DNA of 64,000 nt from a virus. A program made the position numbers and the translations under genes. Numbering within the stretch: position 1 is the stretch's first letter; each line of letters opens with the position of its first letter. This document shows, piece by piece, positions 16,559-44,333 of this stretch. The stretch spans positions 1-64,000 of the IMG/VR virus record IMGVR_UViG_3300000234_000002; one strand, 5' to 3'. The notes beneath the pieces are model-generated. The model searched no databases and had not been told where the DNA came from. It worked only from the letters and a program-made list of their open reading frames with translations.

Positions 16559-16678
16559 ATGAAGCCCTCGCAAGTTGCCACTGAACTCCGTAAAATTGCT
16601 GCCGCTATCGAGGCGTCGAAGACGCCTGATAAGACGAAGGTCGCGTCAGCCATAAAGGGTCTTGTAAAAAAGATCGCT
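16559..16678 (+). repeat. 120-bp leader repeat, copy A
   Basis: atgaagccctcgcaagttgccact...aaaaagatcgct; matches five other copies. Confidence 0.97.
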
Positions 16679-16810
16679 AATGACGAAATGACTGAAGAGG
16701 AAAAACTTTTAGAAAAAGGTATAACGCCTGGTCAAAGGAAAAAAACGGAAGCGCCTGGACATTCGACTGAAGAGCTAGAAGAAGACGGCGTATTCGACGA
16801 CGAATTTTGA
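16559..16810 (+). CDS. leader-family protein A (40-aa leader + 43-aa acidic cargo)
   Basis: Start revised to ATG 16559, where the shared leader begins; cargo has 15 D/E in 43 aa. Confidence 0.8.
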   Translation: MKPSQVATELRKIAAAIEASKTPDKTKVASAIKGLVKKIANDEMTEEEKLLEKGITPGQRKKTEAPGHSTEELEEDGVFDDEF

Positions 16811-16817
16811 GATAAGA

Positions 16818-16851
16818 AATTGTGGGGCCATAACTTTATGGCCCCACAATT
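16818..16851. terminator. perfect inverted repeat between convergent genes, probable bidirectional terminator
   Basis: aattgtggggccataa-ct-ttatggccccacaatt. Confidence 0.8.
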
Positions 16852-16854
16852 ATA

Positions 16855-17166
16855 TCACCACCTATAAATGGAACGTTCAGATCCCTGGTCGGGTTCAATA
16901 TCGTCATCTTCATCATTTGGTTTTATGATTTCGCGGCGTCTTATAGGATTTACAATTGTTACTGTTAATTTGAATTCAGGCTTAAAACTGTGGTTGCAAG
17001 TTCCGCAACCACAAGAAAGTATCCATATACCAGGACTTGGATTGGGATTTCCAACGTCAATGTCATAATCGTCAGCGTAAGTGTTAACATCATTTTTACA
17101 TTTTGGGCATGAAACAACACTTGGAAGTCCCAACATCATTTCTAGATTCAAATTATATCCCATCAT
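16855..17166 (-). CDS. small Zn-ribbon-like protein
   Basis: CPKC...CGTC; the upstream box gTATTAT favours the second ATG (17163). Confidence 0.6.
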   Translation of the reverse strand: MMGYNLNLEMMLGLPSVVSCPKCKNDVNTYADDYDIDVGNPNPSPGIWILSCGCGTCNHSFKPEFKLTVTIVNPIRRREIIKPNDEDDDIEPDQGSERSIYRW

Positions 17167-17185
17167 AAATAATACACCAAAAAGA

Positions 17186-17214
17186 TTTCAGGGGCGATAA
17201 TTTCGCCCCTGAAA
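17186..17214 (-). terminator. intrinsic terminator after the tail tube gene
   Basis: tttcaggggcga-N5-tcgcccctgaaa, followed by a T run on the minus strand. Confidence 0.8.
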
Positions 17215-17237
17215 CTCCGTGGAGACCGAATTTAAAA

Positions 17238-17930
17238 TTAACGAATACCACCACCGGGAACAGTGAAGAGACGAGATCCAGAACCGGGTTGGATGATCGG
17301 GTTGTTACCAGCGTCAAGGAGATCGCCGTAAGTATCAACCGAGTTACCAAAGTTCGTGAATCCGTCCGTCACGTCAGTTGCCATTGCCTGGCAATCTTCC
17401 AAAACGATGGCAGAATCGCCAGGGAAAGAAACCGAATAGCTGTTTATCCAGCAGGCTTCGAAGTATGTGACCATGGCGTAATTGGCACCATCAGTCTCAG
17501 TTGTCTTCTTGAAGATCGCCGCCTGATCGATGGCGGTCACAAGCTCCGAGAACACAAGCTCCGAGCGGATGTCAAACGGCCATTTGTGATGGCGAAGAGA
17601 GCGGACAAGACCATCAATACCACCTCTGTAACCGAGTTCCTGGACTATGCCAGCAGTGTACATGAGAGTGCGGTTGAGGGTCAAAGAAGCCGGTTCGGTA
17701 ACACCAGGAACGAGTTCCACAACTCGGTCACCGAAACCAACACCACGAACCGGATCGACTGAACGACTTTCCGAAAAGTCGAAAGTCGAAAGAACACCAA
17801 CTTGTTTCTGAGAAGGGGCTCCAGTGGTATAAGGCTTAGAAAAAACGCGATTCTTTTGGCTTATGGCCACCCTGGTGTTTGGTGAAGATCCTTTTCTATA
17901 AATCTGAGGTACGTCGGCTTCTCTTGACAT
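17238..17930 (-). CDS. tail tube protein
   Basis: VGVLSTFDFSESR..VRGVGFGD..ELVPG..LTLNR..PFDI..YFEACWINSYSVSF..E; SD (GAGGAG); GC-richer codons. Confidence 0.85.
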   Translation of the reverse strand: MSREADVPQIYRKGSSPNTRVAISQKNRVFSKPYTTGAPSQKQVGVLSTFDFSESRSVDPVRGVGFGDRVVELVPGVTEPASLTLNRTLMYTAGIVQELGYRGGIDGLVRSLRHHKWPFDIRSELVFSELVTAIDQAAIFKKTTETDGANYAMVTYFEACWINSYSVSFPGDSAIVLEDCQAMATDVTDGFTNFGNSVDTYGDLLDAGNNPIIQPGSGSRLFTVPGGGIR

Positions 17931-18010
17931 TTGGTCTCCTCATTCCAACAATAATCAAAAATTTATTTAATAAATGTGGAAATTTCAAATATTTTAGTGT
18001 AACCTATCAG

Positions 18011-18520
18011 ATGCTAATGCAAGACTGCTTGTCGACATATAAAGAGCGTGGACTTTGTTTCTTTTGGGATGGGATATTTTCTCAGTGGTATCCATCCCAA
18101 ATTCATTATAATGGGAATATATTTCAAACAGCTGAACATCTAATGATGTTTAATAAGGCCGAACTTTTTGAAGATTTCGAAACTCGAAATGAAATCTTGA
18201 AGTCTAAAACACCCAAAGAAGCCAAGAAGCTTGGGCGAAGTATCAAAAATTTCAACCAAAAAGTTTGGGATGAATGTAAATATCGTATTGTAGAACGTGG
18301 TAATATTTTAAAATTTACCCAACATCAAGATTTATTTAAAGAGTTATTTGCAACAAGATCAAAAATTCTTGTAGAAGCGTCCCCATACGACAAAATTTGG
18401 GGTATCGGTCTATCGGTCGAAGACCCAAAATCACTCGACCCGAATCAGTGGCTCGGAGAGAATCTATTAGGCTTCATACTTACGGACGTTCGAGATACTT
18501 TAATTCGAATTAAATTTTGA
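18011..18520 (+). CDS. NADAR (YbiA-like) family protein
   Basis: FSQWY..TAEHLMM..KA.LF.D..AKKLGR..W..GN..KFTQ..LVEASPYD.IWGIG..GENLLG..L..VR; start revised to ATG 18011 with box gTAACCT 5 nt upstream. Confidence 0.92.
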   Translation: MLMQDCLSTYKERGLCFFWDGIFSQWYPSQIHYNGNIFQTAEHLMMFNKAELFEDFETRNEILKSKTPKEAKKLGRSIKNFNQKVWDECKYRIVERGNILKFTQHQDLFKELFATRSKILVEASPYDKIWGIGLSVEDPKSLDPNQWLGENLLGFILTDVRDTLIRIKF

Positions 18521-18662
18521 CTTGTAGGTTTTTATTCTTCTATTGTTGAGTGATTTCACTTCATAAAATCGCCTTAGAGTCTAATATTGATCTGCTATTA
18601 TATTAAAAGCTATTCTTATAAAAGTTCTTGTTCAAATCTTTACCAAAACTTGGTCCTCTATC

Positions 18663-18701
18663 GGGTCAAGGTCAACAAGGTGAAATATATGACCTTGACC
18701 C
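18663..18701. terminator. 12-bp inverted repeat in a convergent intergenic region
   Basis: gggtcaaggtca-N15-tgaccttgaccc. Confidence 0.5.
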
Positions 18702-18799
18702 AAACACTGAACTTTAGATGATAACGTTCGTGAAGCCTTAACCTAATTATCTAAAGTTCAGTGAAATGGAAGACTTAGACAAATAGTGGTTTAGGATAA

Positions 18800-19270
18800 T
18801 CATCCTATAGCAGCTAACTCTTCAGCAACAGCTCTGGTAGCTCCACTCATTGGTCCTTCATAAACGGGAGCTTGACCCATGGCGTCTTGCTCACTCATAC
18901 CGGCGTAAATTTTTACGCCCCTAGGTGACTTTTCAACAAGCCAAACTGGAGATTCAGAGTTTACCCAAACCGAACCCCAACCAGCTTCGTATAAACCTTC
19001 CCCATCAACTACCATTCTATTACTTAAGGCGTTCCTCAGTCCATACTCGATGGTAATTTCTGGATAATTCGAAACAGTTCCCATGTCAACAGGGCATTCT
19101 TCGATTATGGAAGTGTTGAAATTAGAAATATTCAACACAGTCTCTGAAGCCGTGATTGACCTAATTATCTTCTTTAGCTCTTGTGCGACAACACCCCGTT
19201 CAGGTCGAACGGAATTTTGAATCTTTGCCGCTATTTTTCGGAGTTCGGATGCAACCTTGCTTGGTTTCAT
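18800..19270 (-). CDS. leader-family protein B (diverged leader + unrelated cargo)
   Basis: MKPSKVASELRKIAAKIQNSVRPERGVVAQELKKIIRSITA aligns without gaps to the consensus leader. Confidence 0.8.
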   Translation of the reverse strand: MKPSKVASELRKIAAKIQNSVRPERGVVAQELKKIIRSITASETVLNISNFNTSIIEECPVDMGTVSNYPEITIEYGLRNALSNRMVVDGEGLYEAGWGSVWVNSESPVWLVEKSPRGVKIYAGMSEQDAMGQAPVYEGPMSGATRAVAEELAAIG

Positions 19271-19323
19271 GTAAAAAATTATTAAAAAAATCTAAGTTTA
19301 GTTTGTTTATGTAAATTTAATAT

Positions 19324-19593: not shown

Positions 19594-19623
19594 ATTTTAT
19601 TTCAGTGTATTTATTATTTAATA

Positions 19624-20508: not shown

Positions 20509-20545
20509 GTTTTTCCACTTCATGAAAGTTCTGGGGAGATAAAAC

Positions 20546-20965
20546 TCAACCTGAATTTTCAGAAGTCTCAATTATATCACAAAGTAAAGAATCTAGATAG
20601 TGATGAGAAAATTCGTCACCAAGAAAACCTAACGTCTGACTATCTCCCCATCTTTCATCAGATATTTCAACACCATCACAGGTAAAAACACCATCAGTGT
20701 TGTTTTTATCGAGTCGTCCATCAAATGTGCATTTTCTTCCATCGTGAAGAGTGAATTCAAAATATCCATCAATTATATCAAATGATTTATCTTTTTGGCT
20801 AATATATTCTCGAATTTTCACAACATTTGGGGTGAATAAATTTCCGGCGATCTTCTTAACAAGACCCTTTATAGCGCTTGCGACCCTCGCCTTATCAGGC
20901 GTCTTCGACGCCTCGATAGCGGCAGCGATTTTTCTTAACTCAGTGGCAACTTGCGAGGGCCTCAT
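20546..20965 (-). CDS. leader-family protein C
   Basis: Start revised to ATG 20965; leader + 99-aa unrelated cargo. Confidence 0.8.
   Translation of the reverse strand: MRPSQVATELRKIAAAIEASKTPDKARVASAIKGLVKKIAGNLFTPNVVKIREYISQKDKSFDIIDGYFEFTLHDGRKCTFDGRLDKNNTDGVFTCDGVEISDERWGDSQTLGFLGDEFSHHYLDSLLCDIIETSENSG
20846..20965 (-). repeat. 120-bp leader repeat, copy C
   Basis: 17 differences from copy A by hand alignment. Confidence 0.95.
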
Positions 20966-20982
20966 TGTGTTTCTTTTATCCG

Positions 20983-21007
20983 AGCTGCGGATCAAAGCTG
21001 CGGATCA
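20983..21007. repeat. 12-bp direct repeat (13-bp period) at the junction of two leader genes
   Basis: agctgcggatca-a-agctgcggatca. Confidence 0.85.
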
Positions 21008-21993
21008 CTAAACAAAAGACCGTCAATTTTTCCATCAATATTAATTAACTCCGATGAAGCTTTTACTAGAACATTTTGCTGACGAATGTAAAGACTTTCA
21101 ATTTCATTTATAACATCATCGCCAAGATGACTGAATTCAGACCTCACATAATTCATATTTAATGGCACAACAGCCTCTGATAAAGCTTCCAAAGCATAAC
21201 CTGCACCCTCAAAGTCATTTAAAAATTTAGTAGCAAGGTTATTAGCATAAGATACATATTCATCATTGTGAGCGATCTTTTTAACAAGACCCTTTATGGC
21301 TGAAGCGACCTTCGTCTTATCAGGCGTCTTCGACGCCTCGATAGCGGCAGCAATTTTTCTTAGCTCAGTGGCAACTTGCGAGGGCTTCATGACATTTCCT
21401 TTATCCGAAGAAGTTTTCGTTTCGAGAACGTCCTTCAAAATTTCATTGAGGTCATTATCAAGTTCTAGCTTTGCAGCTTTTACCTTTTCAATATAACTAT
21501 CGTAAACTTTCTTTAATTTTAGCGCTTCATATTCTTCGACTCTCGGATGGTCGGCTTTAGGGAAACGCTTCAAACAAGAATCATAAGTTTTATACGCAGC
21601 ATTGTAAGCATCGTTAAATTTTGGAACGAACGACTTATGGAATTTACTGAAGAACTTATTGGCCGAGTTATTCCACTCGGACATTGAGTCTTTCTCTATA
21701 TTTTCTTTAACCTGAGTTACAATGTCTTTCCCTTTAGCGGAAAGGTATTTCTGAGCGATTCTTTTGGACACTAAGCTATTGGATGACACTTGTGAATTCC
21801 CAACTTCTTTTTGTGCCCAAGAATCACCTTCAGGAGTATTGTAGACCAGACATTTATAACCTTGAATTTTCAAGTATCCGGAGAATGTTGAATCTCTAAC
21901 AACATTCTCCGGTACATTCTTAACATCCCACTGGCCGTCAGGCTGTAAATGGAAACCGAGACCCGACGTCATTTTAAAATCGTCTGATAACAT
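20992..21993 (-). CDS. 333-aa protein with an internal leader copy D; probable second start at 21390
   Basis: Leader in frame at aa 202-241; AAGGA precedes the internal ATG. Confidence 0.75.
   Translation of the reverse strand: MLSDDFKMTSGLGFHLQPDGQWDVKNVPENVVRDSTFSGYLKIQGYKCLVYNTPEGDSWAQKEVGNSQVSSNSLVSKRIAQKYLSAKGKDIVTQVKENIEKDSMSEWNNSANKFFSKFHKSFVPKFNDAYNAAYKTYDSCLKRFPKADHPRVEEYEALKLKKVYDSYIEKVKAAKLELDNDLNEILKDVLETKTSSDKGNVMKPSQVATELRKIAAAIEASKTPDKTKVASAIKGLVKKIAHNDEYVSYANNLATKFLNDFEGAGYALEALSEAVVPLNMNYVRSEFSHLGDDVINEIESLYIRQQNVLVKASSELINIDGKIDGLLFSDPQL
21271..21390 (-). repeat. 120-bp leader repeat, copy D (intragenic)
   Basis: Direct sequence match. Confidence 0.97.
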
Positions 21994-22008
21994 CAGGTTA
22001 CCCTAAAT

Positions 22009-22494: not shown

Positions 22495-22529
22495 GGTTTC
22501 CTTTCAATTCTTTCCTATCAATAGCTTAA

Positions 22530-24032
22530 TCAAACAAAAGAACTTTGGTTGGATTCTATCAAAATGCTGTCTGGAGGTGATTGATATTTATGATGTTTCT
22601 TAGACATCTGGCCAATTTTATGATTATCAATAATTTGCTTAGTTGCTTTTATGATGTTGTCGAGGCTGAAATAGCATACGCCCTCAACAACTCTTCCTTC
22701 AGCCACAGCATTTTTAATCGTATTCTTAACCAAACTCTTGATATAGTCGCCAGTCAAACCTTCAGTGAGTTCAATAATGTTGGAAAAAGAATCTGCGGTA
22801 AAACTATCATCATGCTGAGTGCAATATGATTTGAAGAACTTAGAAATCATTTCTCTTCTGTCGACAGCATCAGGAAGAGGGATTTCAATTTTCGAGTCAA
22901 ATCTTCCAGGTCGATTGATAAGGGCTTCATCCATAGAAAAAACGTCATTGGTGGAAGCCATAACAACCACACCAGAGTTTTCTCTAGCACCGTCTAAACA
23001 AGCTAAAAACTCGTTCAAAATTCTTCCGGATCCACCAAAACTCGATCTATCTTGACCGAAAAGGTCCATATCTTCTATAAAAATTATGCAAGGAGTCAAA
23101 GCTCTGGCAGCTTCAAAAAGCGAAGTCACATGGTCTGCCTGATTTATTGACTTACCGGTGCACCATATGCGAGTCATGCCTTCCGAGACTTCACAGTCTA
23201 TGGCTCGGAAAGTCATGGTTTTTGCCATACCGGGAGGTGATATGAGCATTACGTTATTGGAAGGCGGCATCCCAAGTTCAAGAAATTTATCGGCATTCTT
23301 TAATATTTCAACAGTGTTATTTCTTATCATTTCCTTCAGAGAAGGCTTCATTATAATGGAGTCCCAAGAGGTGTTGGTGACTTCACCAAAACCAAAAATT
23401 CCCTGATCATAAGTTAAACATTTCTTATAATAAATATCGTTTACCATTCTAGACTCGTCAAGATCAACCAAGAAATTCTCAGCAAGTTGAGAATTTTCAG
23501 GGTTCGTCATGACAGAGACACTGCAACTCATGCTTGTGTAGCACAAGTCCAAGTTCACAGTCAAATTCTTATTCGTTTTACGGCATTTGACGAAAAAACA
23601 TCCAAAAGCCGGAAGAAGCATTTTTTGATTTAAAGATATTTCAAAAAGCTCAGATTGAATTCTGAAATTGTAATCATTTTTAATCATATCCGAAAACTCA
23701 TAAGAGTCCATGAACGGAATAATGTCGTAAGATGAAGAAGGTCCGTTGAAAAGGCAATAGAATGAATAAGAATTCAGGGCTCGAGACCAGCTCGGATAGG
23801 TTCTATTTACAGAAGTGCACTTATAAAGAGAAGATTCAAGCCAAATCTCTTTTATGTGGTTAACCGGATCCGATGGATACCACTTTTGGGGAGCTTTTTT
23901 GTTTCTTTCATCGACCTTATAAAAGTAAGTGTCAACAAAGTAATTTATAAGACCTGAAACCATAGAACTGATATTATAAGGTTTAGAGTCAAGATTTTTA
24001 ATATAATTAGCAGTTTTAGCTAAGTTACTCAT
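22530..24032 (-). CDS. AAA+ ATPase (classical clade) with atypical Walker A
   Basis: SPPGMAKT, IIFIEDMD, MASTN..MDEALINRPGRFD, LPD. Confidence 0.9.
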   Translation of the reverse strand: MSNLAKTANYIKNLDSKPYNISSMVSGLINYFVDTYFYKVDERNKKAPQKWYPSDPVNHIKEIWLESSLYKCTSVNRTYPSWSRALNSYSFYCLFNGPSSSYDIIPFMDSYEFSDMIKNDYNFRIQSELFEISLNQKMLLPAFGCFFVKCRKTNKNLTVNLDLCYTSMSCSVSVMTNPENSQLAENFLVDLDESRMVNDIYYKKCLTYDQGIFGFGEVTNTSWDSIIMKPSLKEMIRNNTVEILKNADKFLELGMPPSNNVMLISPPGMAKTMTFRAIDCEVSEGMTRIWCTGKSINQADHVTSLFEAARALTPCIIFIEDMDLFGQDRSSFGGSGRILNEFLACLDGARENSGVVVMASTNDVFSMDEALINRPGRFDSKIEIPLPDAVDRREMISKFFKSYCTQHDDSFTADSFSNIIELTEGLTGDYIKSLVKNTIKNAVAEGRVVEGVCYFSLDNIIKATKQIIDNHKIGQMSKKHHKYQSPPDSILIESNQSSFV

Positions 24033-24058: not shown

Positions 24059-25852
24059 TTAGAAGGACATAGAATCTAAATATTTATCCCAAATATAAAT
24101 TTTATCTGAGAAATTCATATTCAATGAAATACTCGCAACAGAAGATGACTTTCTTCTTTTAAGGGCTTTATCTGCATATCCTCTTAGTTCCTCGTTTTCA
24201 TTTTCTGAAATTTCTTCAAGTGTTTTTAAAGGTGTGTTTGGGTTGCCACAAAGCCATACTAATGTTATGAAATCACCAGTTTTTGAAAATTTATGGAGTA
24301 CTTCAGGAGGACTTTTTGGATTGCTGGAGATAGACTTAATGAACTCTGGGTCTTCAGTATCCGAAAAACTTTCAATTATTTCGACGGGAATTTTCGGGTT
24401 ATTGAGCAAAGAAGTTATTGAATGATGATCTCCATATTCAATGATTTCATTTGCGATTTCATTATTAATATTTGAATTGCGAGCAATGCCTCTTTGAATA
24501 TGGGGATCTTTTTTTCTTGCCAAAAGAATAAGAATTTCTGAAGAAACTTTTTTATTTGCACCTAAAGCGTTCAAAACTTCTTTGTTATGACTTTCTGAAA
24601 GTGCTTCAATAATTCCGGGTGTTATATTTTTATTACTAGCCAAACTTGCAAGAACTTCATGATCATCGTCCAATAAATTTTCAAGAATTTCAACAGGAGT
24701 CAAAGGATTAGATGCTATAACTGATCGAACTTCAAGGTCTTTGTCAGTTGATAATTTTTCGATAATACTCCGTGGTAAATTAGTATTAGTACCCAAAAAA
24801 GCACGAATCTCTGCACTTTCATGATTTGAAAATTTTTCTAAAGTATTAGCATCCGTATTTGGGTTGCGAACAACACCTGAAAGAACGTCATAATCTTCGG
24901 AGTTTGAAAGTTTTTCCAAAATGTATGGTGGGGTGCTGTGATTATAAGCAATACCAATATTAGTATTAACATCGTTTTCATCAAATAATAACTCAATCAT
25001 ATAGGGAGTCAAGTTTTCATTTGAAGAAATTGCTTTTTTTATTTCCTTATTGTCACTCTTAACAAGATCTTCTTGTTCTTTTTTAGATAACTCTTCACCC
25101 GACCCGAATTTTGCAAGTGCACTCTTTGGAGCATCTTTAGCTTTTTGATCGCAAACATTCATAATACTATTGAAACTATCACCTAAATATTTTGAAACTT
25201 TATAATCAGAAAGTTGTTTGTCATAGGAGTTCCAAAATATTTTCTCTTCAGTGTTATTATCAACGTCTCTTTGATAGCTTATCGCTATTTTATAAAGTGG
25301 ATCCGAAATATCGGATTTTTTGTTTAATACGAAAAAGAAAACACAATTTGATAATTGATACTCCTCATAATATGATGCACCCTTCATCGTTATACACCAT
25401 TTAGAGCCTTGACCGTGGAATATTGAAGCAGCTTTATTTTTTATCCACAAAACTTCAAAATCATCATTTTCAAAAATTTTCTCAGAATCAGGAACTTCTT
25501 CTAGTTTATAACGTTTTTGAACTTTATCTTTCCTACCCGATTGGTTATCTTTCAATTCAAATAACTGGTCTCTAAGTTCCGTAAATTCATTAAATTTATA
25601 CTGATAAATATCTCGCTTTTCTAAATTCTTCCCAAATTTCTCGAAAAGTTCAACAACATCAGCAATTTCAGCAGAAAGTGCTTGCCCAGACTCAAGTATT
25701 TTAAGTTCCCACTCAAGATATTTATTCTTCCCTTTTGTGGGATCTTTAGAACTAAAATACTCTATGTCTTTTTGATACTGTGGATATTTGACTAAAGCAT
25801 CTTTTTCTGATAATGCAGCGATAATTGAATATGCTATACGAACTAAATTCAT
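24059..25852 (-). CDS. alpha-solenoid (LRV/HEAT-like repeat) protein, paralogue 1
   Basis: About 13 units of A.NPNTP..ILEKLS.D; N-terminal domain with GSKWCITM. Confidence 0.8.
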   Translation of the reverse strand: MNLVRIAYSIIAALSEKDALVKYPQYQKDIEYFSSKDPTKGKNKYLEWELKILESGQALSAEIADVVELFEKFGKNLEKRDIYQYKFNEFTELRDQLFELKDNQSGRKDKVQKRYKLEEVPDSEKIFENDDFEVLWIKNKAASIFHGQGSKWCITMKGASYYEEYQLSNCVFFFVLNKKSDISDPLYKIAISYQRDVDNNTEEKIFWNSYDKQLSDYKVSKYLGDSFNSIMNVCDQKAKDAPKSALAKFGSGEELSKKEQEDLVKSDNKEIKKAISSNENLTPYMIELLFDENDVNTNIGIAYNHSTPPYILEKLSNSEDYDVLSGVVRNPNTDANTLEKFSNHESAEIRAFLGTNTNLPRSIIEKLSTDKDLEVRSVIASNPLTPVEILENLLDDDHEVLASLASNKNITPGIIEALSESHNKEVLNALGANKKVSSEILILLARKKDPHIQRGIARNSNINNEIANEIIEYGDHHSITSLLNNPKIPVEIIESFSDTEDPEFIKSISSNPKSPPEVLHKFSKTGDFITLVWLCGNPNTPLKTLEEISENENEELRGYADKALKRRKSSSVASISLNMNFSDKIYIWDKYLDSMSF

Positions 25853-25874: not shown

Positions 25875-26381
25875 TTATACAGACATTATTTTAAATGGAG
25901 GACGAACTGCATTGCTGTGAATAGAAGCAGCTTTCAATGCAGTTTTTATTCGGGTCTTAGGATCAAAACCAACAGTTGAGGCTAAAGAACCTAAACAGAT
26001 TTCGTCTGCTATTCCTATTGCATTATAACAGTTTACGGATCTTTCTAAGTGGTAATCATTGTAACTGGTCCAAATGCGACCTTTGCTACCAACTATTATT
26101 TGCCAGTCGTTTAAATTATATTTATTACTCTTTATGTATCGATGAAAAGAATCCATGAAGATGTTACCATCGTCATCCGATCCTAAAGGTTCTAACGGTT
26201 TAAAATTCAAAAAAGCCGTTTCAAATTTCCAATTTCCTGCAAATCCGACAAGCCAGCCATTTCTTTTAAAAAGTTTTTTATTTGTAACAGAACAAATAGT
26301 AGAATTCGACACTCCGGAACTAGCAGAGTCCGAACCGAACCAAACTTTCCCATCTGATTCAATGCCAACTACTGCAGTCAT
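25875..26381 (-). CDS. HslV/proteasome-beta-like Ntn hydrolase
   Basis: MTAVVGI..GKVWFGSDS (N-terminal Thr), KKLF, VGFAG, YNAIG; start revised to the Met before Thr. Confidence 0.7.
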   Translation of the reverse strand: MTAVVGIESDGKVWFGSDSASSGVSNSTICSVTNKKLFKRNGWLVGFAGNWKFETAFLNFKPLEPLGSDDDGNIFMDSFHRYIKSNKYNLNDWQIIVGSKGRIWTSYNDYHLERSVNCYNAIGIADEICLGSLASTVGFDPKTRIKTALKAASIHSNAVRPPFKIMSV

Positions 26382-26390
26382 TTTCATTCC

Positions 26391-34400: not shown

Positions 34401-36509
34401 AGCGTTTATAGCTGTAGCAACGTCCGAAAGAGTCGTAGCAGCCGAAATGTCGATGGGAGCAAGGGTAATCCCGTCGATCACAAGAAGCAATCTGTCAGTC
34501 GACAATGGAGTAACCGAAGCTACCGGATTACCCAAAAGAAGGGCTCGGAATGCGGTAGAAAGGTTAACAGTTACCGGTGCATTTCCGTCGATTACTACGC
34601 CACCAAAGTTCTGGCTGTAAGCGTAGATGTCGTACGGCTCCTGCTTCCCATTAGAGAAAGAAGCGTGGGTCGCGGGATTCAACGCGTTAGAGAACGTGAC
34701 CGTGACGGTCTCCGAAGTCGGATTTCCGGCTCCAGTGTGGATGACGTCAGGAGCCTGTTCAGAGCCGGAAGGCCACTGAATGGTTTCAGGAAGGCCGGAT
34801 TTGGTTCCGAACTTGGTTCCGTAAAGGTTTACGCCAGTGAGAGCGGAAGCTATCGTGTAAGTTCCGATAGAAGAAGGTCCAGGAGTCACAACGCTGAAAG
34901 TATAGGTATCATCTACTATTCTGTTATACCAGAAAGTAGCGAAAGCCTTATAATCAGCAGGAACCGGGCTCTTCAACGTGACTGTGTTGTTAGTTCCGTC
35001 AACTTCAGTCACAGCTACAGGAGGTCTGGAACTGGCATCTCTCCAGTTCTTACCAACATGAACTATGACAAGATCGGGTCTGTTGGTCGGAAGGTCAATT
35101 CTTCCGTTCGTAACAGTCTGATAAAGGGAGACACCAAGGGGCGTATCTCTACCATTTCCAGTGGTGGGGGTCAGGGGAAGAACGAACTTGCTCGTAGAAA
35201 CCGAGTTCAAAACCGGATCTACGAATCTGGAGCACTCAGAACCATAAACACGATTATCAACAAGCAAACCAACTATTTGGGTGCTGTTGAAAGCGGTATT
35301 TCCAGTCTGAACGCCGGAGGAAACGTTGAAAGTCGCCCCCCACTGAATTCTTGACTGATCACCATCATTGGTAACAACGAAATCTTGACCATTGATATAA
35401 TCACGACGACCCGGACCAATTCCGACGTTCCCAACATTCACAATGTTGGTATTCGGAAGGTAGTCAAAAGTGTCTTGGAAAGTATTGAAATAATAGGTGA
35501 TGTTGACAGTCGAACCGTCAGTCGGAGCGAACGGGAGAGTCACCAAGCTATTAAGACCGTCAACCGACGATGCAATAACAACCTGTCCGTTCACCAAAAC
35601 GCTAACCTTCGTAATGTCAGTCGTTATGATTCCGCCATCGGAACCATCAACAATAGGACCTTGGAAGGTTCTGAAAGACTTGTTGCGGGAAGTGGAAACT
35701 CCGGGATTAAACCCGAAAACGCCGTTGGCATTTCCACTACTTATCGTTATATTCCCGGCAGCGGTCAATCTGACGTGATTCAAGCCGTCAGCATCAACGT
35801 GGATCGAAGCAGTCAAACCGGTGATGTTAGCAGCGTTGACGTCATTAGCAACATCCGCAGCAGGACGGCTCGTACCGGCGGTTAAATTGACAGAGTAGGT
35901 GGTGAGATCGTTCACCACTAAAGTGAGAGTGTCGTTGGTTCCCGATACAACAGAGTAAGGCTCAGCTTTGGGAGCGGTAAGAATAGCAAGGCCAGCGCTT
36001 ATTTGCTGGGAAAGATTGTCAGTTATTCTTACGTCTTTTCGGTGGAAGAAATAATTAACAAGAACAACATCATCTTCATTCGGTGGAACCAAGATGGTCA
36101 CCAAGCCGTTTACGCCGTCGACGGACGAAACTATAACAGACTCGTTATTGACAGTAACAGAAACCTTGGTAACATCGAACGTGGTGAGACCACGACCCGA
36201 ACCGTCCACTATAGGAACGTTTCTTACCTTAAACTGAGTTTTGGAACCATCCTGGTTACCTAAAACAGGGTTTGAAAGAGTTCCACCAGAAACCCATCTA
36301 CCAGTAACGTCCTCACCAAAAATGGGAGTATCAGCTACACTGCTGGAACCTCTCACCATTTCATAGTTGGATTGCGATAAGGTCTCCTTACCGACACCGA
36401 TAAGAACGGGAACTCGAATTCCACCAAGGTTCTGAGCCGCAGAGGGATCAGCAGAAGTAGAAACAGTCACACCAGGAGGAGTGTAGGTGGGGAAGGGACC
36501 AATCGCCAT
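31458..36509 (-). CDS. tail sheath protein, unusually large
   Basis: N-terminal YTPPGV..PVLIG; C-terminal sheath core (SLAARIAQLNGA, PLTRRSI.GF, NGVTII, YIGQK, Y.PVFPLEYI); SD; GC-richer codons. Confidence 0.9.
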   Translation of the reverse strand: MAIGPFPTYTPPGVTVSTSADPSAAQNLGGIRVPVLIGVGKETLSQSNYEMVRGSSSVADTPIFGEDVTGRWVSGGTLSNPVLGNQDGSKTQFKVRNVPIVDGSGRGLTTFDVTKVSVTVNNESVIVSSVDGVNGLVTILVPPNEDDVVLVNYFFHRKDVRITDNLSQQISAGLAILTAPKAEPYSVVSGTNDTLTLVVNDLTTYSVNLTAGTSRPAADVANDVNAANITGLTASIHVDADGLNHVRLTAAGNITISSGNANGVFGFNPGVSTSRNKSFRTFQGPIVDGSDGGIITTDITKVSVLVNGQVVIASSVDGLNSLVTLPFAPTDGSTVNITYYFNTFQDTFDYLPNTNIVNVGNVGIGPGRRDYINGQDFVVTNDGDQSRIQWGATFNVSSGVQTGNTAFNSTQIVGLLVDNRVYGSECSRFVDPVLNSVSTSKFVLPLTPTTGNGRDTPLGVSLYQTVTNGRIDLPTNRPDLVIVHVGKNWRDASSRPPVAVTEVDGTNNTVTLKSPVPADYKAFATFWYNRIVDDTYTFSVVTPGPSSIGTYTIASALTGVNLYGTKFGTKSGLPETIQWPSGSEQAPDVIHTGAGNPTSETVTVTFSNALNPATHASFSNGKQEPYDIYAYSQNFGGVVIDGNAPVTVNLSTAFRALLLGNPVASVTPLSTDRLLLVIDGITLAPIDISAATTLSDVATAINAAVDADTQVHADGSGTFLSSAPNALASVLSYGSENAIVIRGRSVPSFTNGLVSSVLVLPPTGSGQTDGSTKIGLSPNASAQGSYNSINQVASYVATKTAPYNVTAGVNDSVQINVDGVDVTATIPSGSAVTLNDVVTSINDVYIEYASAADVATYTADVIALANNLRTKYEAHRVSTVFHVIADAVNTISAPVAVTLGDSLTLLNDIKTKFNLHLSQAGIHQLDDTLNVVTTANASNLVTAVRLANDLKDAFNLHLTQRGVHGKDDATNTLTPASAPVIESDCYPILNDLKAKYNAHRVLASAHLTSDTVNIITATNAVDSPTALALANELKADFNLHLLQSGVHVVDDVTNNITSANATNSGTLITLTTELQTKYPLHLAEIQGIYHVHGTNDTTNPSAFFLNELVARTGQGINSGKLVLTSRINTVNSLITIKTSGNANLVLGLEPGLTVQRSQPTAKKIANALNANSSFSSLAFAYQVPVQGLGNYLTVNSRSTGNSSTVAFSSVANSALIEDTGLGIVVGSSGDIGENAQSGFTVASSQGLLGSHGTGFPGQTYTDSTTGLRFTVLPASSGDYTSGGSFTLVVNQTFVTDASLPIRAVNGVELTVYNTFNMNPGTTSLVRTYDRSGIEPQVGDVYYISYDYAKSDISTQLYRDSKKIIQAFGSPTPDSPLSLAARIAQLNGAVVVGLKQVFRSANSSQAPVSAYISAIDEQKKKIGGSTPADVVIPLTSNTQVFGYLNQHCVFMSAPRQEGERTGVVGVATGTSPLGVQSIARSLNSELVTVVYPDSFVISVQDSLGNLVDQLVDGTYAAAAYAASTCNPTFDVASPLTRRSIQGFRRIGRVLDPTEANQIAVNGVTIIEQVQAGLRVRHALTTNVDSVLTRTPSVVLTIQYVQKVLRQVLDPYIGQKLTGNLIKSVETAISGAFTTLIDQQIVTSVAGIEVASDENDPTILRVSAIYVPVFPLEYIVATLSVRVRS

Positions 36510-36563
36510 TTGAAATTCTTCCTTTAAAAAGATTTTATGTATTTAGTAAGTATAAAGTATCGG

Positions 36564-38733: not shown

Positions 38734-38741
38734 GGAGTTAA

Positions 38742-39098
38742 TCACTCACGGGTACTGGGATGACCTAACTCTTCTATCATAGACATAATAATTTCCGTCT
38801 CTTCTTCCTGGTCTATATCCCCATCACTTTCACGAACCCAATCCGCATCTCTACCATCTTTTTCAAGGCTTATTTTATAAGTGTGCTCTTGCCCATCAGG
38901 AGTTTGGCTTGTGACTCTCCACTCTTCCCATCTGGGGTCTTCCTCAGGAAGAACTTCTTTTTTCAATATGGGGGAGTTAGCGATCTTTTTTACAAGACCC
39001 TTTATGGCTGACGCGACCTTCGTCTTATCAGGCGTCTTCGACGCCTCGATAGCGGCAGCAATTTTTCTTAGCTCAGTGGCAACTTGCGAGGGCCTCAT
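38742..39098 (-). CDS. leader-family protein E (78-aa acidic cargo)
   Basis: Start revised to ATG 39098 with GGAG upstream. Confidence 0.8.
   Translation of the reverse strand: MRPSQVATELRKIAAAIEASKTPDKTKVASAIKGLVKKIANSPILKKEVLPEEDPRWEEWRVTSQTPDGQEHTYKISLEKDGRDADWVRESDGDIDQEEETEIIMSMIEELGHPSTRE
38979..39098 (-). repeat. 120-bp leader repeat, copy E
   Basis: Direct sequence match. Confidence 0.97.
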
Positions 39099-39121
39099 GA
39101 AAACTCCGTGATATAAAAAAC

Positions 39122-40120
39122 TCAATCGCTCATTTGAGCGGCAGTGTGGAGACCGAGAGCAACAGCGTGCATAGGGTCAGATGCCTGTCTGATTTCCGAT
39201 ATTTCAATCGGAAATTTTGACTTCTTGGATTCAAAGATTTCAGTAAATTTATCCATGAAGCCCGAAGCCATGGAAGTTCCGCCAGAAACAATAATGGGAA
39301 TGGGAGTGGAAAGAAGAAATTCAGACTTTGCTCTATGAAATTGAGAAATAATCTTATCTATTGTATATTCGATAAGATTAGAAATGTAGAAAGAAATCGC
39401 TTCAGCTTCTCTTCCCCTTGGGTTCAAGATGTTAACCCCCGACTCTTTAATATGACAAGCCTTCGAAGCTGTGATCCCTAAAGCACTTGAAGCTCCAGCA
39501 TCAATCCAATCACCACCTCTCCCGAGCGAGAATTCCAAAGCGCTCATCGCGTTGTATGACAAACAAACATTTGTCATACCAGATCCATATGATATCCCAA
39601 GACCGGAGAATTTTGTGGATGAACCTTCGGAATAAACTATAGCGAGCGCTTCATTAACTGGCTCCGGGTCGTAACCAGTTTCTTGGATTATCTTTTTGAG
39701 AATGCTGGTGTGATAAATGGTATTGGAACCGGCAATATCAATTGCCGGGGCCGGAACAGAGAAACAGCATTTTTCGTTCGGGGACTTCGGCTTCCCGATG
39801 AGATTGTTAATTATAATGGCGATGACTTTCTGAGCCTCAACTTCACCGGACGAAACAACACCGCCTGCGAGGGGTCTGCGGATTTCTTTGTTGAAAAGAT
39901 TCGCAGAAGCTAATGCGTCATCACCAATAACATAAAGAGAACCATCAATTTCTACGAAAGCAGTGTTGCTGAGCTTGAGCATCCTCTTGTGCTCAATAGG
40001 CAAATCAAGGAAAGCATCCCTAACTCTTTTAATGGAAACTTTCTTTTCTGAACTTCGTGCAGCCACGAAGTTCATAGTTCCACAGTCTAGACCAACACCA
40101 AAGATTTCGTTTTTAGACAT
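39122..40120 (-). CDS. actin-like ATPase (MreB/ParM/FtsA superfamily)
   Basis: GLDCGT, IGDDA, RRPLAGGVV, FSVPA, VNEALA, GISYGSGMTN, GGDWID, VSGGTS, AVALG. Confidence 0.85.
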   Translation of the reverse strand: MSKNEIFGVGLDCGTMNFVAARSSEKKVSIKRVRDAFLDLPIEHKRMLKLSNTAFVEIDGSLYVIGDDALASANLFNKEIRRPLAGGVVSSGEVEAQKVIAIIINNLIGKPKSPNEKCCFSVPAPAIDIAGSNTIYHTSILKKIIQETGYDPEPVNEALAIVYSEGSSTKFSGLGISYGSGMTNVCLSYNAMSALEFSLGRGGDWIDAGASSALGITASKACHIKESGVNILNPRGREAEAISFYISNLIEYTIDKIISQFHRAKSEFLLSTPIPIIVSGGTSMASGFMDKFTEIFESKKSKFPIEISEIRQASDPMHAVALGLHTAAQMSD

Positions 40121-40154
40121 TTCGATAATCAAGTTACATCAAAGTTTTTATTTT

Positions 40155-40682
40155 TTAATATTTGGAATTCTCATATTCACGGAAAGATTCAGCTAAATCA
40201 GAAACTCCTGATTCTTCTAAGCCTTCAATAATATCATTTGAATGAAATGCTCCATGGGAGCAAAACCAAATAATAGTGTCTTCTTTTTGTAAAAACTCTT
40301 TCATAGAAGAATATTTTTTGAACGACTTCTGATCAAATCCTTCGACTTCATCCCAAGTTTTTGATCCAGATCCCAGGACGTCAACAGGACTACTGGATTT
40401 TAAACTTTTCGGGTCTGAATTAATAGCAACAAAAACTGAGTCAGTAAAAGCTGCCCAAATACTACCGCTAACCTTTAAACCTTCTTTCATTTCATAAACA
40501 AGGTCCATAGCAGAATAATCGCCGTTATTTATATCGATAGATACAACTGAGGGAACTTCAGATGAGATCTTTTTAACAAGACCCTTTATGGCTGAAGCGA
40601 CCTTCGTCTTATCAGGCGTCTTCGACGCCTCGATAGCGGCAGCAATTTTACGGAGTTCAGTGGCAACTTGCGAGGGCCTCAT
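40155..40682 (-). CDS. leader-family protein F (135-aa cargo)
   Basis: Start revised to ATG 40682; TATAAT 4 nt upstream. Confidence 0.8.
   Translation of the reverse strand: MRPSQVATELRKIAAAIEASKTPDKTKVASAIKGLVKKISSEVPSVVSIDINNGDYSAMDLVYEMKEGLKVSGSIWAAFTDSVFVAINSDPKSLKSSSPVDVLGSGSKTWDEVEGFDQKSFKKYSSMKEFLQKEDTIIWFCSHGAFHSNDIIEGLEESGVSDLAESFREYENSKY
40563..40682 (-). repeat. 120-bp leader repeat, copy F
   Basis: Direct sequence match; ends KKIS. Confidence 0.97.
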
Positions 40683-40720
40683 GAAAATTATAGAAAATAA
40701 AAAAATAAAAAACTCAAGAT

Positions 40721-41263: not shown

Positions 41264-41925
41264 AAACTCTTTTCTATCAGATCTCTTATGGCTGATGAAA
41301 ACTCATTCGCCACTAAATCCGATACTCTATTCGCAAATCTTCCTATTATACCTTCAAGTTGTTTAGACTTGTAAATGAATTCTTTATTTTCAGCCTCATA
41401 CTCCTCTTTGCGGGCTGCCATATAAGAGTTAGATTTAATTATTAACTTGCCTTGCCTAGTAAGAAGCATAGACTTAGGGGTCGCACTAATTTTTCTTTTA
41501 AAGTCACGGTGAGATGAAGTCTCTCTGGCGTCAAGAACCCTTCGGCGCCCATCATTCAATCCATCGCCGTAACGCTTTCTAGCGTCAACGGCACCGTAAC
41601 CTCTTCTCAGAACTCTCTGAACTCCGCCTAAAGGCTTTTTTCTGAAAGTTTTGTCGGGTTTCGGCTCTTCCTCTTCGTCAGATTCTTCTACTTTTATATC
41701 AGAGTTTTCTAAATCTATGCCCTCGATGTCAAATACTATCTCGAATTCTATTACATTATTCGTTATATTAGCTAAAACTTCATAATGTTTTAAATGTTCA
41801 AATTTGGTAATACCTTCGGACACCAATAATTTATCAAGCAAATCAATGCCATCCTTAGCTATTTCTTCAACTATTGAAGAAATAATCTGTTTTGAAATTT
41901 GGAGGAGTGATTTCTCGATGCTCAT
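41260..41925 (-). CDS. hypothetical protein, possibly virion morphogenesis
   Basis: 221 aa, translationally coupled in the neck cluster; basic central region. Confidence 0.6.
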   Translation of the reverse strand: MSIEKSLLQISKQIISSIVEEIAKDGIDLLDKLLVSEGITKFEHLKHYEVLANITNNVIEFEIVFDIEGIDLENSDIKVEESDEEEEPKPDKTFRKKPLGGVQRVLRRGYGAVDARKRYGDGLNDGRRRVLDARETSSHRDFKRKISATPKSMLLTRQGKLIIKSNSYMAARKEEYEAENKEFIYKSKQLEGIIGRFANRVSDLVANEFSSAIRDLIEKSL

Positions 41926-43241
41926 CTACGGTAAGTATTTTCAAAAGTTACAGTGTTACCACGAAATTCACGTTCATCAGGGATAGCGGATCTTTCCGAA
42001 ACCATAGGGTTCGAAGAACCTTCACCCGGAATAGTGAATCTTGTTTGAGGAGAATAAAGACGGGAAGTATTTATAATAGGAACTTTACTTCTTATATCTT
42101 GTTCATCAATGTGTGATATTATAAAAAACTGCTGAAGTTGCATGCCTCTAGCAGTTGGCATTTTAACCGAACCTATCGAATATCTGTCACCATTCAATTT
42201 TAAAATGAAATCCCTTTGAGACAATAGAGGTGAAGGACTAGTCCAAGTATCTTGTTCGTGTGATAACGTCTGTCCCCTATTTGTTAATTTATGAGCTTTA
42301 TTTGAGTCATCGGGAGCTATTATTATATCGTAAGGACCGTCGTAACCACCTATGAATCCGGTGGCGTAGCAAAGTAAACAATCAGATTGCGGCTGTCTAT
42401 GCGTAGAAGAATAACAACCACATCTAATTCCAAAATTCTTTCGAATATAAACTTTTACCCTTTCCCCACCTTGGTAGAGAAGGAATTTATTCCTTCTTAC
42501 AGCTTCTCTCCATATCCAGTCAAGCTGTTCAGTTTCGTAATTATTGGATATAGCTGATTTACTGAGTGAAGTTTCAACTTCATTACCACTAGAATCAACA
42601 CAAACTGAAGTTAGTCTATAATACACTCTCTGCCCCATGTTAGTTTTCACAATATTATTTTTATAACGATAAGTTGCTAAAACAACACTATTTTCATTCG
42701 GGACTACTGGAGGAATAGGTTTTTGGGAAACAGGATCAAAAGAACCATAATTTCTTATTTGAACTTGACCAGAAGTTGAGTCTATGGAATCTATGGAAGC
42801 CACAACACCATCAATTGTGACGTAAACATTAAGGCTAGCGCAGTCTGCTTCACCAAGCCAAGGCTGGATGACGATCGGTTTGTATCTAGTTTGAAAAACC
42901 CATTGGGCATCAGGGTCAGTAGTTCCCTTATATACAAATGAGTTCGATACATCTTCTTCCAAAGAAAGAGCGGTAATAGTTTCGTCTCTCCAAAAGTTAC
43001 TGCAAACCGGAATTAAATTTAATTTTTGAAAATCACCATAAGGAGAATCGAAAGCCCTATAAATATTAACGCCTATTATTTGGAACCTGGAATTTTGAAA
43101 TAAACTTGACGGGTCATCCCATCTTAAATCAATAATTCCAGGTTCAAGACCAGACTGACAAGAAAAATTCAAAGGAGGTAAAGGAGAGGCCGAATAGTCC
43201 TGTTCCAGTATATGGGGAGGTCTATCAGCAGGAGCTGGCAT
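41922..43241 (-). CDS. putative neck/head-completion protein with FN3-like N-terminus
   Basis: IDLRWD..GVNIYRA..YYRLTSV; GGERVK..RCGC..DCLLCYATGFIGGY..LSQRDFI..RYSI. Confidence 0.6.
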   Translation of the reverse strand: MPAPADRPPHILEQDYSASPLPPLNFSCQSGLEPGIIDLRWDDPSSLFQNSRFQIIGVNIYRAFDSPYGDFQKLNLIPVCSNFWRDETITALSLEEDVSNSFVYKGTTDPDAQWVFQTRYKPIVIQPWLGEADCASLNVYVTIDGVVASIDSIDSTSGQVQIRNYGSFDPVSQKPIPPVVPNENSVVLATYRYKNNIVKTNMGQRVYYRLTSVCVDSSGNEVETSLSKSAISNNYETEQLDWIWREAVRRNKFLLYQGGERVKVYIRKNFGIRCGCYSSTHRQPQSDCLLCYATGFIGGYDGPYDIIIAPDDSNKAHKLTNRGQTLSHEQDTWTSPSPLLSQRDFILKLNGDRYSIGSVKMPTARGMQLQQFFIISHIDEQDIRSKVPIINTSRLYSPQTRFTIPGEGSSNPMVSERSAIPDEREFRGNTVTFENTYRR

Positions 43242-43274
43242 AATAAAAAGATTTAATCAAGAATTGAAACAAAT

Positions 43275-43556
43275 TTAGTCTTCTTCGACTAAGACGTGAA
43301 GTGAATATCCACCGTTTTCACCAGGTTCAACCGATAGTCTTTGTATTTTAGATTTATCGAGGTCCTCATCGGACAAAACCTTCTGGACAGTTTGAACCTT
43401 AGCCTGATTAATGGTTTTTATTCTTGCGTCGAGTTCGTCGAGTTCATGCTTACGACGAACATACTCAACGGACCAATGCGTCAAAGATGCATCATACTCG
43501 GATATGCGGGTGAGGGTCTCGCCGGAAAGAGGAAATTTTTTAGTAACCATAGCCAT
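43275..43556 (-). CDS. small coiled-coil protein
   Basis: 93 aa. Confidence 0.6.
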   Translation of the reverse strand: MAMVTKKFPLSGETLTRISEYDASLTHWSVEYVRRKHELDELDARIKTINQAKVQTVQKVLSDEDLDKSKIQRLSVEPGENGGYSLHVLVEED

Positions 43557-43815
43557 AAGGAATAATACCAGGCTTAAATGTGATTTTTAACTCTAAATTA
43601 TCCGCCGAAGCATAATGTCTATCAAGTCCGTATTCGTTTTTCGTTATATTAAGAGCTGACTCTACGGCAGCTTCTATTTCAAATTTAAGTTTTTCTTGGA
43701 GAGCATTCTTATCAACATCGCCCGAAAAATGAACTTCGAAAGATAGACTACCTTTTATAAAATATTGGTTGTCGTCTTCACTGGCGATCTTAGTGGCAAT
43801 TTTACCAAAATTCAT
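43540..43815 (-). CDS. hypothetical protein with N-terminal KIATKIA
   Basis: 91 aa. Confidence 0.65.
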   Translation of the reverse strand: MNFGKIATKIASEDDNQYFIKGSLSFEVHFSGDVDKNALQEKLKFEIEAAVESALNITKNEYGLDRHYASADNLELKITFKPGIIPYGYGY

Positions 43816-43990
43816 AAAACATAATGAAAATTAAAAGAATAATACATGAAAATTAGTTATTAACTGTTAATTTAATCAACGCAGACTCTCGTCGAACACT
43901 ATGACTAATGCCACATTGTCTCGTACAAGTCTTCATCATTTCACGTATAATAATGATGCTTTTTATAAAATATTGGTTGTCGTCTTCACT
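43753..43990. repeat. 30-bp perfect direct repeat (43753-43782 and 43961-43990): duplicated, frameshifted 5' end of gene 43540-43815
   Basis: ttttataaaatattggttgtcgtcttcact twice; encodes SEDDNQYFIK. Confidence 0.92.
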
Positions 43991-44333
43991 AGCTTTTGCT
44001 TGCAATTTTAACTTCATACTGAAATTCATTGCTACCATCCCAATACATCAGAATATCTCTTAATAGATCCTCATCACCAACAACATTCTCTAAAACACCA
44101 TTTTGTAATTCATCAGTTGAAAAAATTGCAGAGTGTGATTCACCACCACACTTTGCAGTTATGAAATCAACATCACCTTCTTCAATTTTCACATCATAAA
44201 TTTTTGTCTTTGTAGCGATCTTTTTTACAAGACCCTTTATGGCTGAGGCGACCCTCGCCTTATCAGGCGTCTTCGACGCCTCGATAGCGGCAGCAATTTT
44301 TCTTAGCTCAGTGGCAACTTGCGAGGGCTTCAT
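43989..44333 (-). CDS. leader-family protein G (74-aa acidic cargo)
   Basis: ORF starts exactly at the leader; TACAGT 4 nt upstream. Confidence 0.85.
   Translation of the reverse strand: MKPSQVATELRKIAAAIEASKTPDKARVASAIKGLVKKIATKTKIYDVKIEEGDVDFITAKCGGESHSAIFSTDELQNGVLENVVGDEDLLRDILMYWDGSNEFQYEVKIASKS
44214..44333 (-). repeat. 120-bp leader repeat, copy G
   Basis: Direct sequence match. Confidence 0.97.

Follow-up and report, generated by a model that had tools for sequence, protein, structure and literature searches.

The 64,000-nucleotide stretch analyzed here (positions 1 to 64,000 of IMG/VR virus record IMGVR_UViG_3300000234_000002, hereafter the window) contains a dispersed 120-nucleotide coding repeat, which is very probably a protein domain: a basic two-helix hairpin belonging to a large, unnamed family found in a clade of uncultivated giant phages. 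In the usual layout this hairpin, which we refer to as the module, is followed by a short linker of small residues and then by a highly variable and almost always acidic domain, which we refer to as the cargo. That phages can place a shared element on variable cargo is known as a general idea; what is new is a folded, duplicable, position-independent basic hairpin that is almost always joined to acidic domains and that recurs in about 500 unnamed protein clusters.

Our sequence base was the whole phage record of 83,957 bp, which is wider than the window. Six copies of the repeat lie in genes that we call A to F, at 16559-16678 on the plus strand (A) and at 20846-20965 (B), 21271-21390 (C), 38979-39098 (D), 40563-40682 (E) and 44214-44333 (F) on the minus strand. 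BLAST of copy D against the record returned these six places at 91-100% identity over 117-120 nt; compared pairwise, the six are 86-98% identical (3-17 of the 120 positions differ), and repeat finding gave a group of direct repeats on the minus strand together with inverted matches to the plus-strand copy at 16559. A seventh, diverged copy in gene G (19151-19270, minus strand) shares 48% amino acid identity and matches the leader profile with an E-value of 4e-24. When the record was searched in six frames with a profile built from all seven sequences, seven modules were recovered (E 7e-28 to 4e-24) and no eighth was found anywhere in the 83,957 bp. In translation each copy opens with M(K/R)PSQVATELRKIAAAIEASKTPDK.. 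and then runs in frame into a tail of its own, 43 (A), 99 (B), 92 (C), 78 (D), 135 (E), 74 (F) or 116 (G) residues long; BLASTP among the seven tails detected no similarity (E > 0.3). The leaders differ from their cargos in composition as well, with a GC content of 0.49-0.53 (0.53-0.60 at third codon positions, GC3) versus 0.32-0.44 (GC3 0.17-0.37) for the cargos and 0.39 for the genome. In all of these respects the analysis bears out an earlier reading made from the letters of the window alone (the sequence-only reading), which had listed the six 120-bp copies at about 86-98% identity, the protein-level diverged copy, the in-frame passage into different domains of 43-135 residues and the higher GC of the repeat relative to AT-rich cargos. 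Its statement that similarity begins at the ATG needs amending for D and E, which also share a 13-nt box upstream of that codon.

The same reading had named an assembly artifact as something that would overturn it, and raw data speak to this point. Three public runs from two studies (two biofilm metagenomes from one study and one soil metagenome) contain the phage at 91-99% of sampled words. No RNA run is among those listed for this DNA. In the deepest of the three, X1, Logan de Bruijn contigs end within the leaders, and the leader unitigs have a depth of 72-84 versus about 31 in the flanking single-copy DNA, an excess of 2.3-2.7 times. One X1 contig runs from the tail of A through gene G to the 3′ half of the B leader, and a second links the B leader to the C leader. 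The excess depth and these links argue that the repeat is real and present in multiple copies. A 322-kb contig also encodes module proteins of this phage.

The family extends far beyond this genome. The seven-sequence profile matched 496 clusters at E ≤ 1e-3 among 1.84 billion representative proteins, and the best 150 of these are small proteins in which the MKPSQ pattern is followed by unrelated sequence. All of the members that we looked up are metagenomic and are named only "hypothetical protein". With the modules masked, 141 proteins fall into 94 BLAST groups, so the earlier picture of a portable module joined to unrelated domains holds well outside the phage in which it was drawn. Two large viral contigs are true relatives (G001, 241 kb, and G002, 193 kb; their volactin-like actin homologues are 58-64% and a 439-residue neighbor 55-59% identical to those of the phage), and they carry at least five and at least six modules, respectively. 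Databases of named families were uninformative: Pfam and PHROG searches with the seven proteins gave no hit. DUF7433 was considered and set aside as a sub-threshold match in 2 of 45 relatives, and the other Pfam and PHROG matches among those 45 were likewise sporadic and sub-threshold. A word-index search with the leader returned only this phage's proteins, and our literature search on the motif and on jumbo-phage capsid-targeting paralogues found nothing relevant. A pattern scan of GTDB species genomes gave no confirmed relative, which, as the patterns were narrow, is weak evidence of absence from cells.

The consensus, MKPSQ..LRRIA..I..SK.PD..LVA.DLKK, spans 36-40 residues. Given an alignment of 45 sequences, AlphaFold2 predicts helices at residues 3-19 and 25-40 with a five-residue S-K-x-P-D turn between them, at a predicted local distance difference test score of 86-95. 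Conservation is concentrated in the hairpin core (L10, I13, A14, I17, V28 and A29), in the turn, and in exposed basic residues (R or K at positions 11, 12, 21, 25, 33 and 34). The module has a net charge of +6 and an isoelectric point (pI) above 10. The AlphaFold2 model of gene D adds a four-stranded sheet and a helix beyond the hairpin; a fold search with this model returned nothing at E ≤ 0.001 from PDB and BFVD, and the ESM Atlas offered nothing more specific than helical hairpins of a generic type, the SRP54 N domain among them. Broad profiles run against PDB sequences matched only de novo designed helix-loop-helix repeat proteins, which suggests that the module is close to an idealized stable hairpin. 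A narrow profile did pick up the helix-loop-helix in the C-terminal domain of ribosomal protein uL11 (E 0.06-0.33), an identity that we rejected: the match is gone with broad profiles, and PF00298 has no hit in the phage though it hits all 14 of 14 control genomes.

The module is not bound to the start of a gene. Among the best 143 foreign clusters of the 496, the module is single and N-terminal in 120, present two or three times in 16 and internal in 7; these 7 still begin with Met and may be over-extended open reading frame (ORF) calls or recent fusions. The rarer layouts thus include hairpins that are duplicated, placed at both ends or internal. Some multi-module proteins consist of two hairpins only, with a Pro/Ala linker connecting them. 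In others both termini bear a hairpin and the stretch between may consist of LRV/HEAT repeats (in the metagenomic proteins P0010 and P0011, two hairpins flank LRV repeats), and multi-module clusters often place one module at the extreme C-terminus. A tandem-only protein (P0008 type) is predicted to form four helices, and its model superposes on up-down four-helix bundles (Z ~10, root-mean-square deviation 2.2 Å over 81-86 residues), a match that we read as common geometry rather than evidence of homology. A complex prediction for the hairpin as a homodimer (two copies of residues 1-42) scored 0.02, which counts neither way on pairing.

The phage itself supplies an internal case. ORF C (20992-21993, minus strand; 333 aa) opens with an N-terminal domain of 201 aa, has the module at residues 202-241 and ends in a 92-aa acidic domain, and its reading frame is uninterrupted across the module. 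The metagenomic protein P0013 has a similar N-terminal domain (41% identity over 177 aa) and, behind it, two internal modules without Met; ORF C is thus a genuine fusion, and the module need not be terminal. An AAAGGA lies 8 nt ahead of the internal ATG, and a short form of C starting there is possible. The sequence-only reading had taken every copy for a gene-start leader and the whole for an N-terminal address tag; copy C contradicts the former, and the C-terminal, internal and tandem-only occurrences tell against the latter, since they indicate that the module behaves as a folded domain rather than as a terminal signal.

The remaining module genes are simpler. Gene A (16559-16810, plus strand; 83 aa) adds to its module only a 43-aa acidic tail ending in DDEF, which is probably disordered. 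Gene G (18800-19270, minus strand; 156 aa) joins an old, non-homogenized module to a 116-aa acidic domain with a pI of 4.17. Gene B (20546-20965, minus strand; 139 aa) begins 26 nt past the end of C and adds a 99-aa acidic domain; gene D (38742-39098, minus strand; 118 aa) adds one of 78 aa, the four strands and helix of the model described above. Both B and D have orthologues in other metagenomes, P0079 and P0135, respectively, that carry the module too. For gene E (40155-40682, minus strand; 175 aa), no relatives were found of its 135-aa acidic domain, and gene F (43989-44333, minus strand; 114 aa), directly downstream of an HNH/Mom-like endonuclease gene, ends in an acidic domain of 74 aa. 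A conserved small gene adjoining F (43540-43815, minus strand) opens with a second, shorter motif, M..(K/V)IA.(K/R)IAS, which also opens genes in the relatives G001 and G002 (L031 13799-14179 and L032 9426-9932, both minus strand); it resembles helix 1 of the module alone and may be a half-module or an unrelated helix.

What the cargos share is acidity. All seven have a net charge of -9 to -14 and a pI of 4.17-4.43, and of 121 cargos from metagenomes, 93% carry a net negative charge (median pI of the 121, 4.36). This does not reflect a phage-wide bias, since the median over the 85 called proteins of the phage is 5.9 and a single one of them falls below 4.5. Some family members include LRV/HEAT repeats, zinc ribbons or N-terminal domains of 200 aa. 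Word-index searches with the E and B cargos returned only the proteins themselves, with no instance of the B cargo without the module.

The near-identity of the six DNA copies is younger than the fusions that they head. P0079 and P0135 align with B and D over their full length at 35-36% identity and each carries its own diverged module (cargo about 32-34% identical, hairpin about 55-60%), so these fusions are older than the present resemblance among the copies. The six copies differ at eight informative sites in four blocks (site 5; 27-33; 76-80; 108), and 13 of the 28 pairs of informative sites show all four combinations in a four-gamete test, the signature of repeated gene conversion. From this pattern, the near-identity is a product of concerted evolution by repeated conversion within the 120 nt, and the raised GC3 would fit either GC-biased conversion or selection for expression. 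Copy G is an old copy that stands outside the exchange. The modules of G001 and G002 are not homogenized (within each genome, 23-65% identical as protein and 37-68% as DNA), so the DNA-level identity is peculiar to this phage; that the relatives keep the protein and not the DNA implies that selection acts on the protein. In the phage itself, synonymous differences exceed replacement differences in 12 of 15 copy pairs. The sequence-only reading had proposed a DNA-homogenized tag that turns any captured ORF into cargo, and this order of events has to be reversed: the fusions are old, and it is existing tags that were homogenized. Whatever the module does, the locus illustrates cleanly how a phage protein module can evolve in concert within one genome: the homogenized copies show a raised GC3 and, inside 120 nt, a patchwork of converted tracts, next to an old copy that was not converted.

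Upstream of most of these genes is a positioned T-rich box. For gene D it is TTTTTTAT at 39113-39120 (minus strand), 22 nt ahead of the ATG, and boxes of the same class precede A (16536-16543, plus strand), G (19282-19289), E (40697-40704) and F (44348-44355; all three minus strand). In other words, TTTTT[TA]A[TA] occurs at -19 to -23 in five of the seven module genes; B and C lack it, and the module of C is internal. In all, nine genes have the box in this position versus about 0.2 expected: the five module genes, the tail sheath gene (box at 36523-36530, minus strand), one HNH gene (46160-46167, minus strand) and two others. The box is likely to be a promoter or initiation-region element.

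The surroundings of the copies are mixed. The sequence-only reading had placed all copies among tail and neck genes, and that description does not hold: the neighbors are mostly an actin homologue, endonucleases, an exonuclease, a NADAR protein, an AAA ATPase and the like, and the only recognizably structural gene is that for the tail sheath (31458-36509, minus strand). Of the 1,683 residues of the sheath protein, only the last ~350 match the sheath family phrog_2839; a 1,567-aa homologue in G001 shares 56% identity with it over 987 residues. Between E and D lies a volactin-family actin homologue (39122-40132, minus strand; PF25216, E 5e-70), which has the same position in both related contigs; we found no literature linking volactin to phages. 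The 1,683-aa sheath and the volactin-like actin are shared across the giant-phage clade that holds the module family. The core order (sheath, a 402-aa gene, volactin, then genes of 180, 221 and 439 aa) is kept at 55-64% identity in G001 and G002, and D, E and F occupy variable slots within it, where the relatives hold other genes, including endonucleases. At 39 metagenomic loci, module genes often stand in co-directional arrays of up to five in 1.9-3.1 kb, and homing endonucleases are the commonest annotated families among their 111 neighbors. The largest module cluster of G001 shares the strand of the major head gene and is located 3-4 kb downstream of it. After that head gene (L007 6249-7145, plus strand; phrog_2522, E 8e-46) come a LAGLIDADG-type endonuclease fusion and, ~6 kb downstream, a second short ORF (L007 12821-13081, plus strand) that matches only the C-terminal end of the head family; the head gene may be duplicated or interrupted.

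Several other genes of the window deserve mention. Three paralogous HNH/endonuclease VII/Mom-like multidomain genes lie at 29687-31444 (minus strand), 44357-46147 (minus strand) and 47180-48589 (plus strand), and the two that face each other share a 54-nt inverted repeat (44495-44548 and 48389-48442). The accessory region of A and G contains a NADAR-domain protein (18011-18520, plus strand; PF08719, E 6.6e-50), and a nucleotidyltransferase is encoded near G. NADAR enzymes reverse the ADP-ribosylation of DNA by DarT, and the phage protein is likely to be a counter-defense gene product. A Cdc48/VAT-like single-domain AAA ATPase (22530-24032, minus strand; E 5e-47 to the D2 domain of VAT/Cdc48/p97) is conserved in the relatives, and two genes away is an HslV/proteasome-beta-like peptidase (25875-26387, minus strand; phrog_1040, E 2.5e-8), which was not found in G001 or G002; the two may form a phage unfoldase-protease pair. 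Between them sits an LRV-repeat protein, one of two LRV/HEAT-repeat paralogues (24059-25852 and 51321-53030, both minus strand) that are 73-82% identical in DNA, with several matching blocks exactly 27,172 nt apart. Three glycosyltransferases and a nucleotide-sugar epimerase are clustered at 54586-60296 (minus strand). The dense 9- and 18-nt periodic repeats at the end of the window come from a gene for a collagen-like Gly-X-Y repeat protein of 947 aa (62003-64000, continuing to 64846 in the full record; minus strand), which is probably a fiber.

As to what the hairpin does, the interpretation we tentatively put forward as the likeliest single mechanism, by analogy with known systems, is that it is a position-independent docking domain by which diverse acidic effectors could be loaded onto a receptor inside the head and packaged. 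The hairpin would anchor a wide range of acidic effector domains at a single shared receptor, the likeliest being the inner face of the procapsid or some other head-internal component; the module proteins would be packaged and then delivered along with the genome; and the proteins made of tandem hairpins alone would serve either as bivalent linkers or to fill these same sites. We prefer a docking domain to a cleavable signal because of the position independence, the duplication, the confident fold and the lack of a cleavage motif. Two weak hints point toward the head, namely the proximity of the G001 module cluster to the major head gene and the upstream box that five module genes have in common with the sheath gene, which hints at late expression. 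A bolder version is doubtful: that the MKPSQ hairpin is a natural cargo-loading domain through which at least a hundred families of acidic effectors (probably DNA mimics and other anti-defense proteins) might be packed and delivered, with gene conversion keeping the tag matched to its receptor.

A number of observations weigh against loading into the head. The sequence-only reading expected cleavage near KKIA, and no conserved motif follows the module: a [SAG]xE or [LIV]xE site occurs within 20 residues past it in 32-35 of 122 proteins versus 34-38.5 in shuffled sequences, where the sites scored were [LIV]-x-E and the [SAG]-x-E of phiKZ-like phages, which may not be the specificity of this clade. 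Only 1 of the 111 neighbors at the metagenomic loci is a major head protein, and no major head protein, portal, scaffold or prohead protease was found in the 84-kb record. Three profiles searched against PDB sequences (E ≤ 10) returned neither P22 gp8 (the scaffolding protein discussed below) nor any other scaffold, short hairpins being hard to relate by sequence. When a typical member was compared by tblastn with 50,697 GenBank phage records, no cultured phage proved to carry the module. Strongly acidic proteins are also not obviously favored beside packed DNA. Finally, the positioned T-rich box precedes an HNH gene as well, and the module genes of G001 share a different AT-rich box, which neither the head gene nor the sheath gene of G001 has; late co-expression is thus no general rule. 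We therefore dropped the late-promoter argument.

Other roles for the hairpin can be imagined, and its charge is the natural starting point. A net charge of +6 and the conserved exposed arginines and lysines would suit a domain that binds DNA or RNA, thereby tethering acidic effectors (for example DNA mimics or anti-defense inhibitors) to the genome or nucleoid in the infected cell, with the hairpin-only proteins serving as small nucleic-acid coats. We consider this rather unlikely, even though the acidic pI of the cargos is typical of DNA-mimic inhibitors, tandem-only basic proteins exist, the accessory regions are shared with a NADAR protein of the known anti-DarT type, and the narrow profile weakly resembles (E 0.06) the RNA-binding helix-loop-helix of uL11. 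That resemblance is lost with broader profiles and the Pfam L11 model does not hit the phage; moreover, neither family nor fold searches detected a known nucleic-acid-binding fold or motif, and a basic hairpin beside an acidic domain could equally well neutralize itself. It is also conceivable, in our view unlikely, that the module works in the cytoplasm as a pairing or recognition unit, either packing with other hairpins into mixed cargo complexes or offering a handle to the Cdc48/VAT-like AAA ATPase for unfolding, turnover or translocation. The predicted four-helix bundle from two hairpins in one chain would fit pairing, as would the recurrence of proteins with a hairpin at each end (P0010, P0040, P0074 and P0077), although a Z of ~10 reflects geometry common to any helical model. 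The link to the ATPase is suggested by its strong match to the VAT/Cdc48 D2 domain, by the HslV-like peptidase two genes off, and by the order AAA ATPase, 161-aa gene, C-type N-domain and module genes, which several metagenomic relatives keep. This synteny may reflect relatedness alone, however; in G001 a long distance separates the ATPase (137.7 kb) from the module clusters (43.5 and 223-231 kb), and the HslV-like gene is missing from both G001 and G002.

Two further explanations would remove the addressing role altogether. The module proteins might be an ordinary paralogue family, descended from one small ancestor whose C-terminal part evolved too fast to be recognized, in which case the hairpin is simply the structural core. 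The B and D orthologue pairs, where the cargo has diverged further than the hairpin, and the acidity common to all cargos are what such a history would leave behind. We nevertheless regard it as improbable: the cargos range from 43 to 135 aa in this phage alone, LRV/HEAT repeats, zinc ribbons and 200-aa N-domains are present in some members, the position of the module varies (either terminus, internal or tandem), the 94 cargo groups among 141 proteins are unlinked, and copy G retains 48% identity in the hairpin with nothing detectable in the tail. The least credible of all, and in our judgment extremely improbable, is that the 120 nt act as nucleic acid (a structured RNA, a recombination site or a regulatory cassette) or are an assembly artifact. 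Their high DNA identity, sharp edges and atypical GC are what would be expected of such an element, and homologous recombination could use the copies as substrates. On the other side, the relatives keep the protein at a DNA identity of only 37-68%, the predicted RNA fold of the 150-nt region is not unusual (z-score -0.79), and synonymous differences exceed replacement differences in most copy pairs; as for an artifact, three runs hold the phage, and in X1 the raised leader depth and the contigs that tie each cargo to its leader half speak for real copies.

Should the docking interpretation prove correct, the hairpin would mark a large and otherwise invisible set of phage effectors, nearly all of them acidic orphans, and would thus provide a sequence handle for delivered or co-localized effectors in uncultivated giant phages. 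It would also mean that phages use a folded, reusable docking domain and not just short cleavable peptides, and the 40-residue tag could become an encapsidation tool.

Three known systems invite comparison. The capsid-targeting sequence (CTS) of phage T4, found on IPI, IPII, IPIII and Alt, is similar in that an N-terminal element is shared by unrelated accessory proteins encoded in variable regions, the element being kept as the cargo changes. The CTS, a peptide of some 10-20 residues, occurs at the N-terminus only and is cut by the prohead protease after a Glu, and the T4 internal proteins are basic. The module is instead a folded hairpin of 36-40 residues that also occurs C-terminally, internally and in tandem, that is followed by no cleavage motif, and whose cargos are acidic; it therefore lacks three of four T4-CTS features, being neither short nor strictly N-terminal nor followed by a protease site. 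The PeSLs of T4-type phages are short DNA repeats located at the 5′ ends of accessory genes within hyperplastic regions, much as the repeat here comprises a positioned T-rich box and the first 120 coding nucleotides in a gene-conversion mosaic. Repeats of this type can drive recombination and shuffling. PeSLs are reportedly non-coding regulatory promoter/stem-loop cassettes that flank accessory genes, whereas the conserved unit here is a protein domain that is kept in relatives despite diverged DNA.

The closest documented working parallel is the coat-binding helix-turn-helix of the P22 scaffolding protein gp8 (aa 268-303), whose 36 residues form two helices separated by a five-residue turn and are, like the module, amphipathic and cationic (PMC9962691). 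This element is essential for shell binding, and fusions to truncated scaffold bring foreign proteins into the procapsid, making the element a self-contained dock that can carry foreign cargo whatever its nature (PMC9962691). No sequence similarity between the two was detected, and their contexts differ: the P22 element is single and lies at the C-terminus of a long essential scaffold that exits the capsid, whereas the module heads many small accessory proteins. In the bolder version of our interpretation, the module would be to giant phages, as a folded domain, what the CTS is to T4, and would do in nature what the engineered P22 scaffold tag does.

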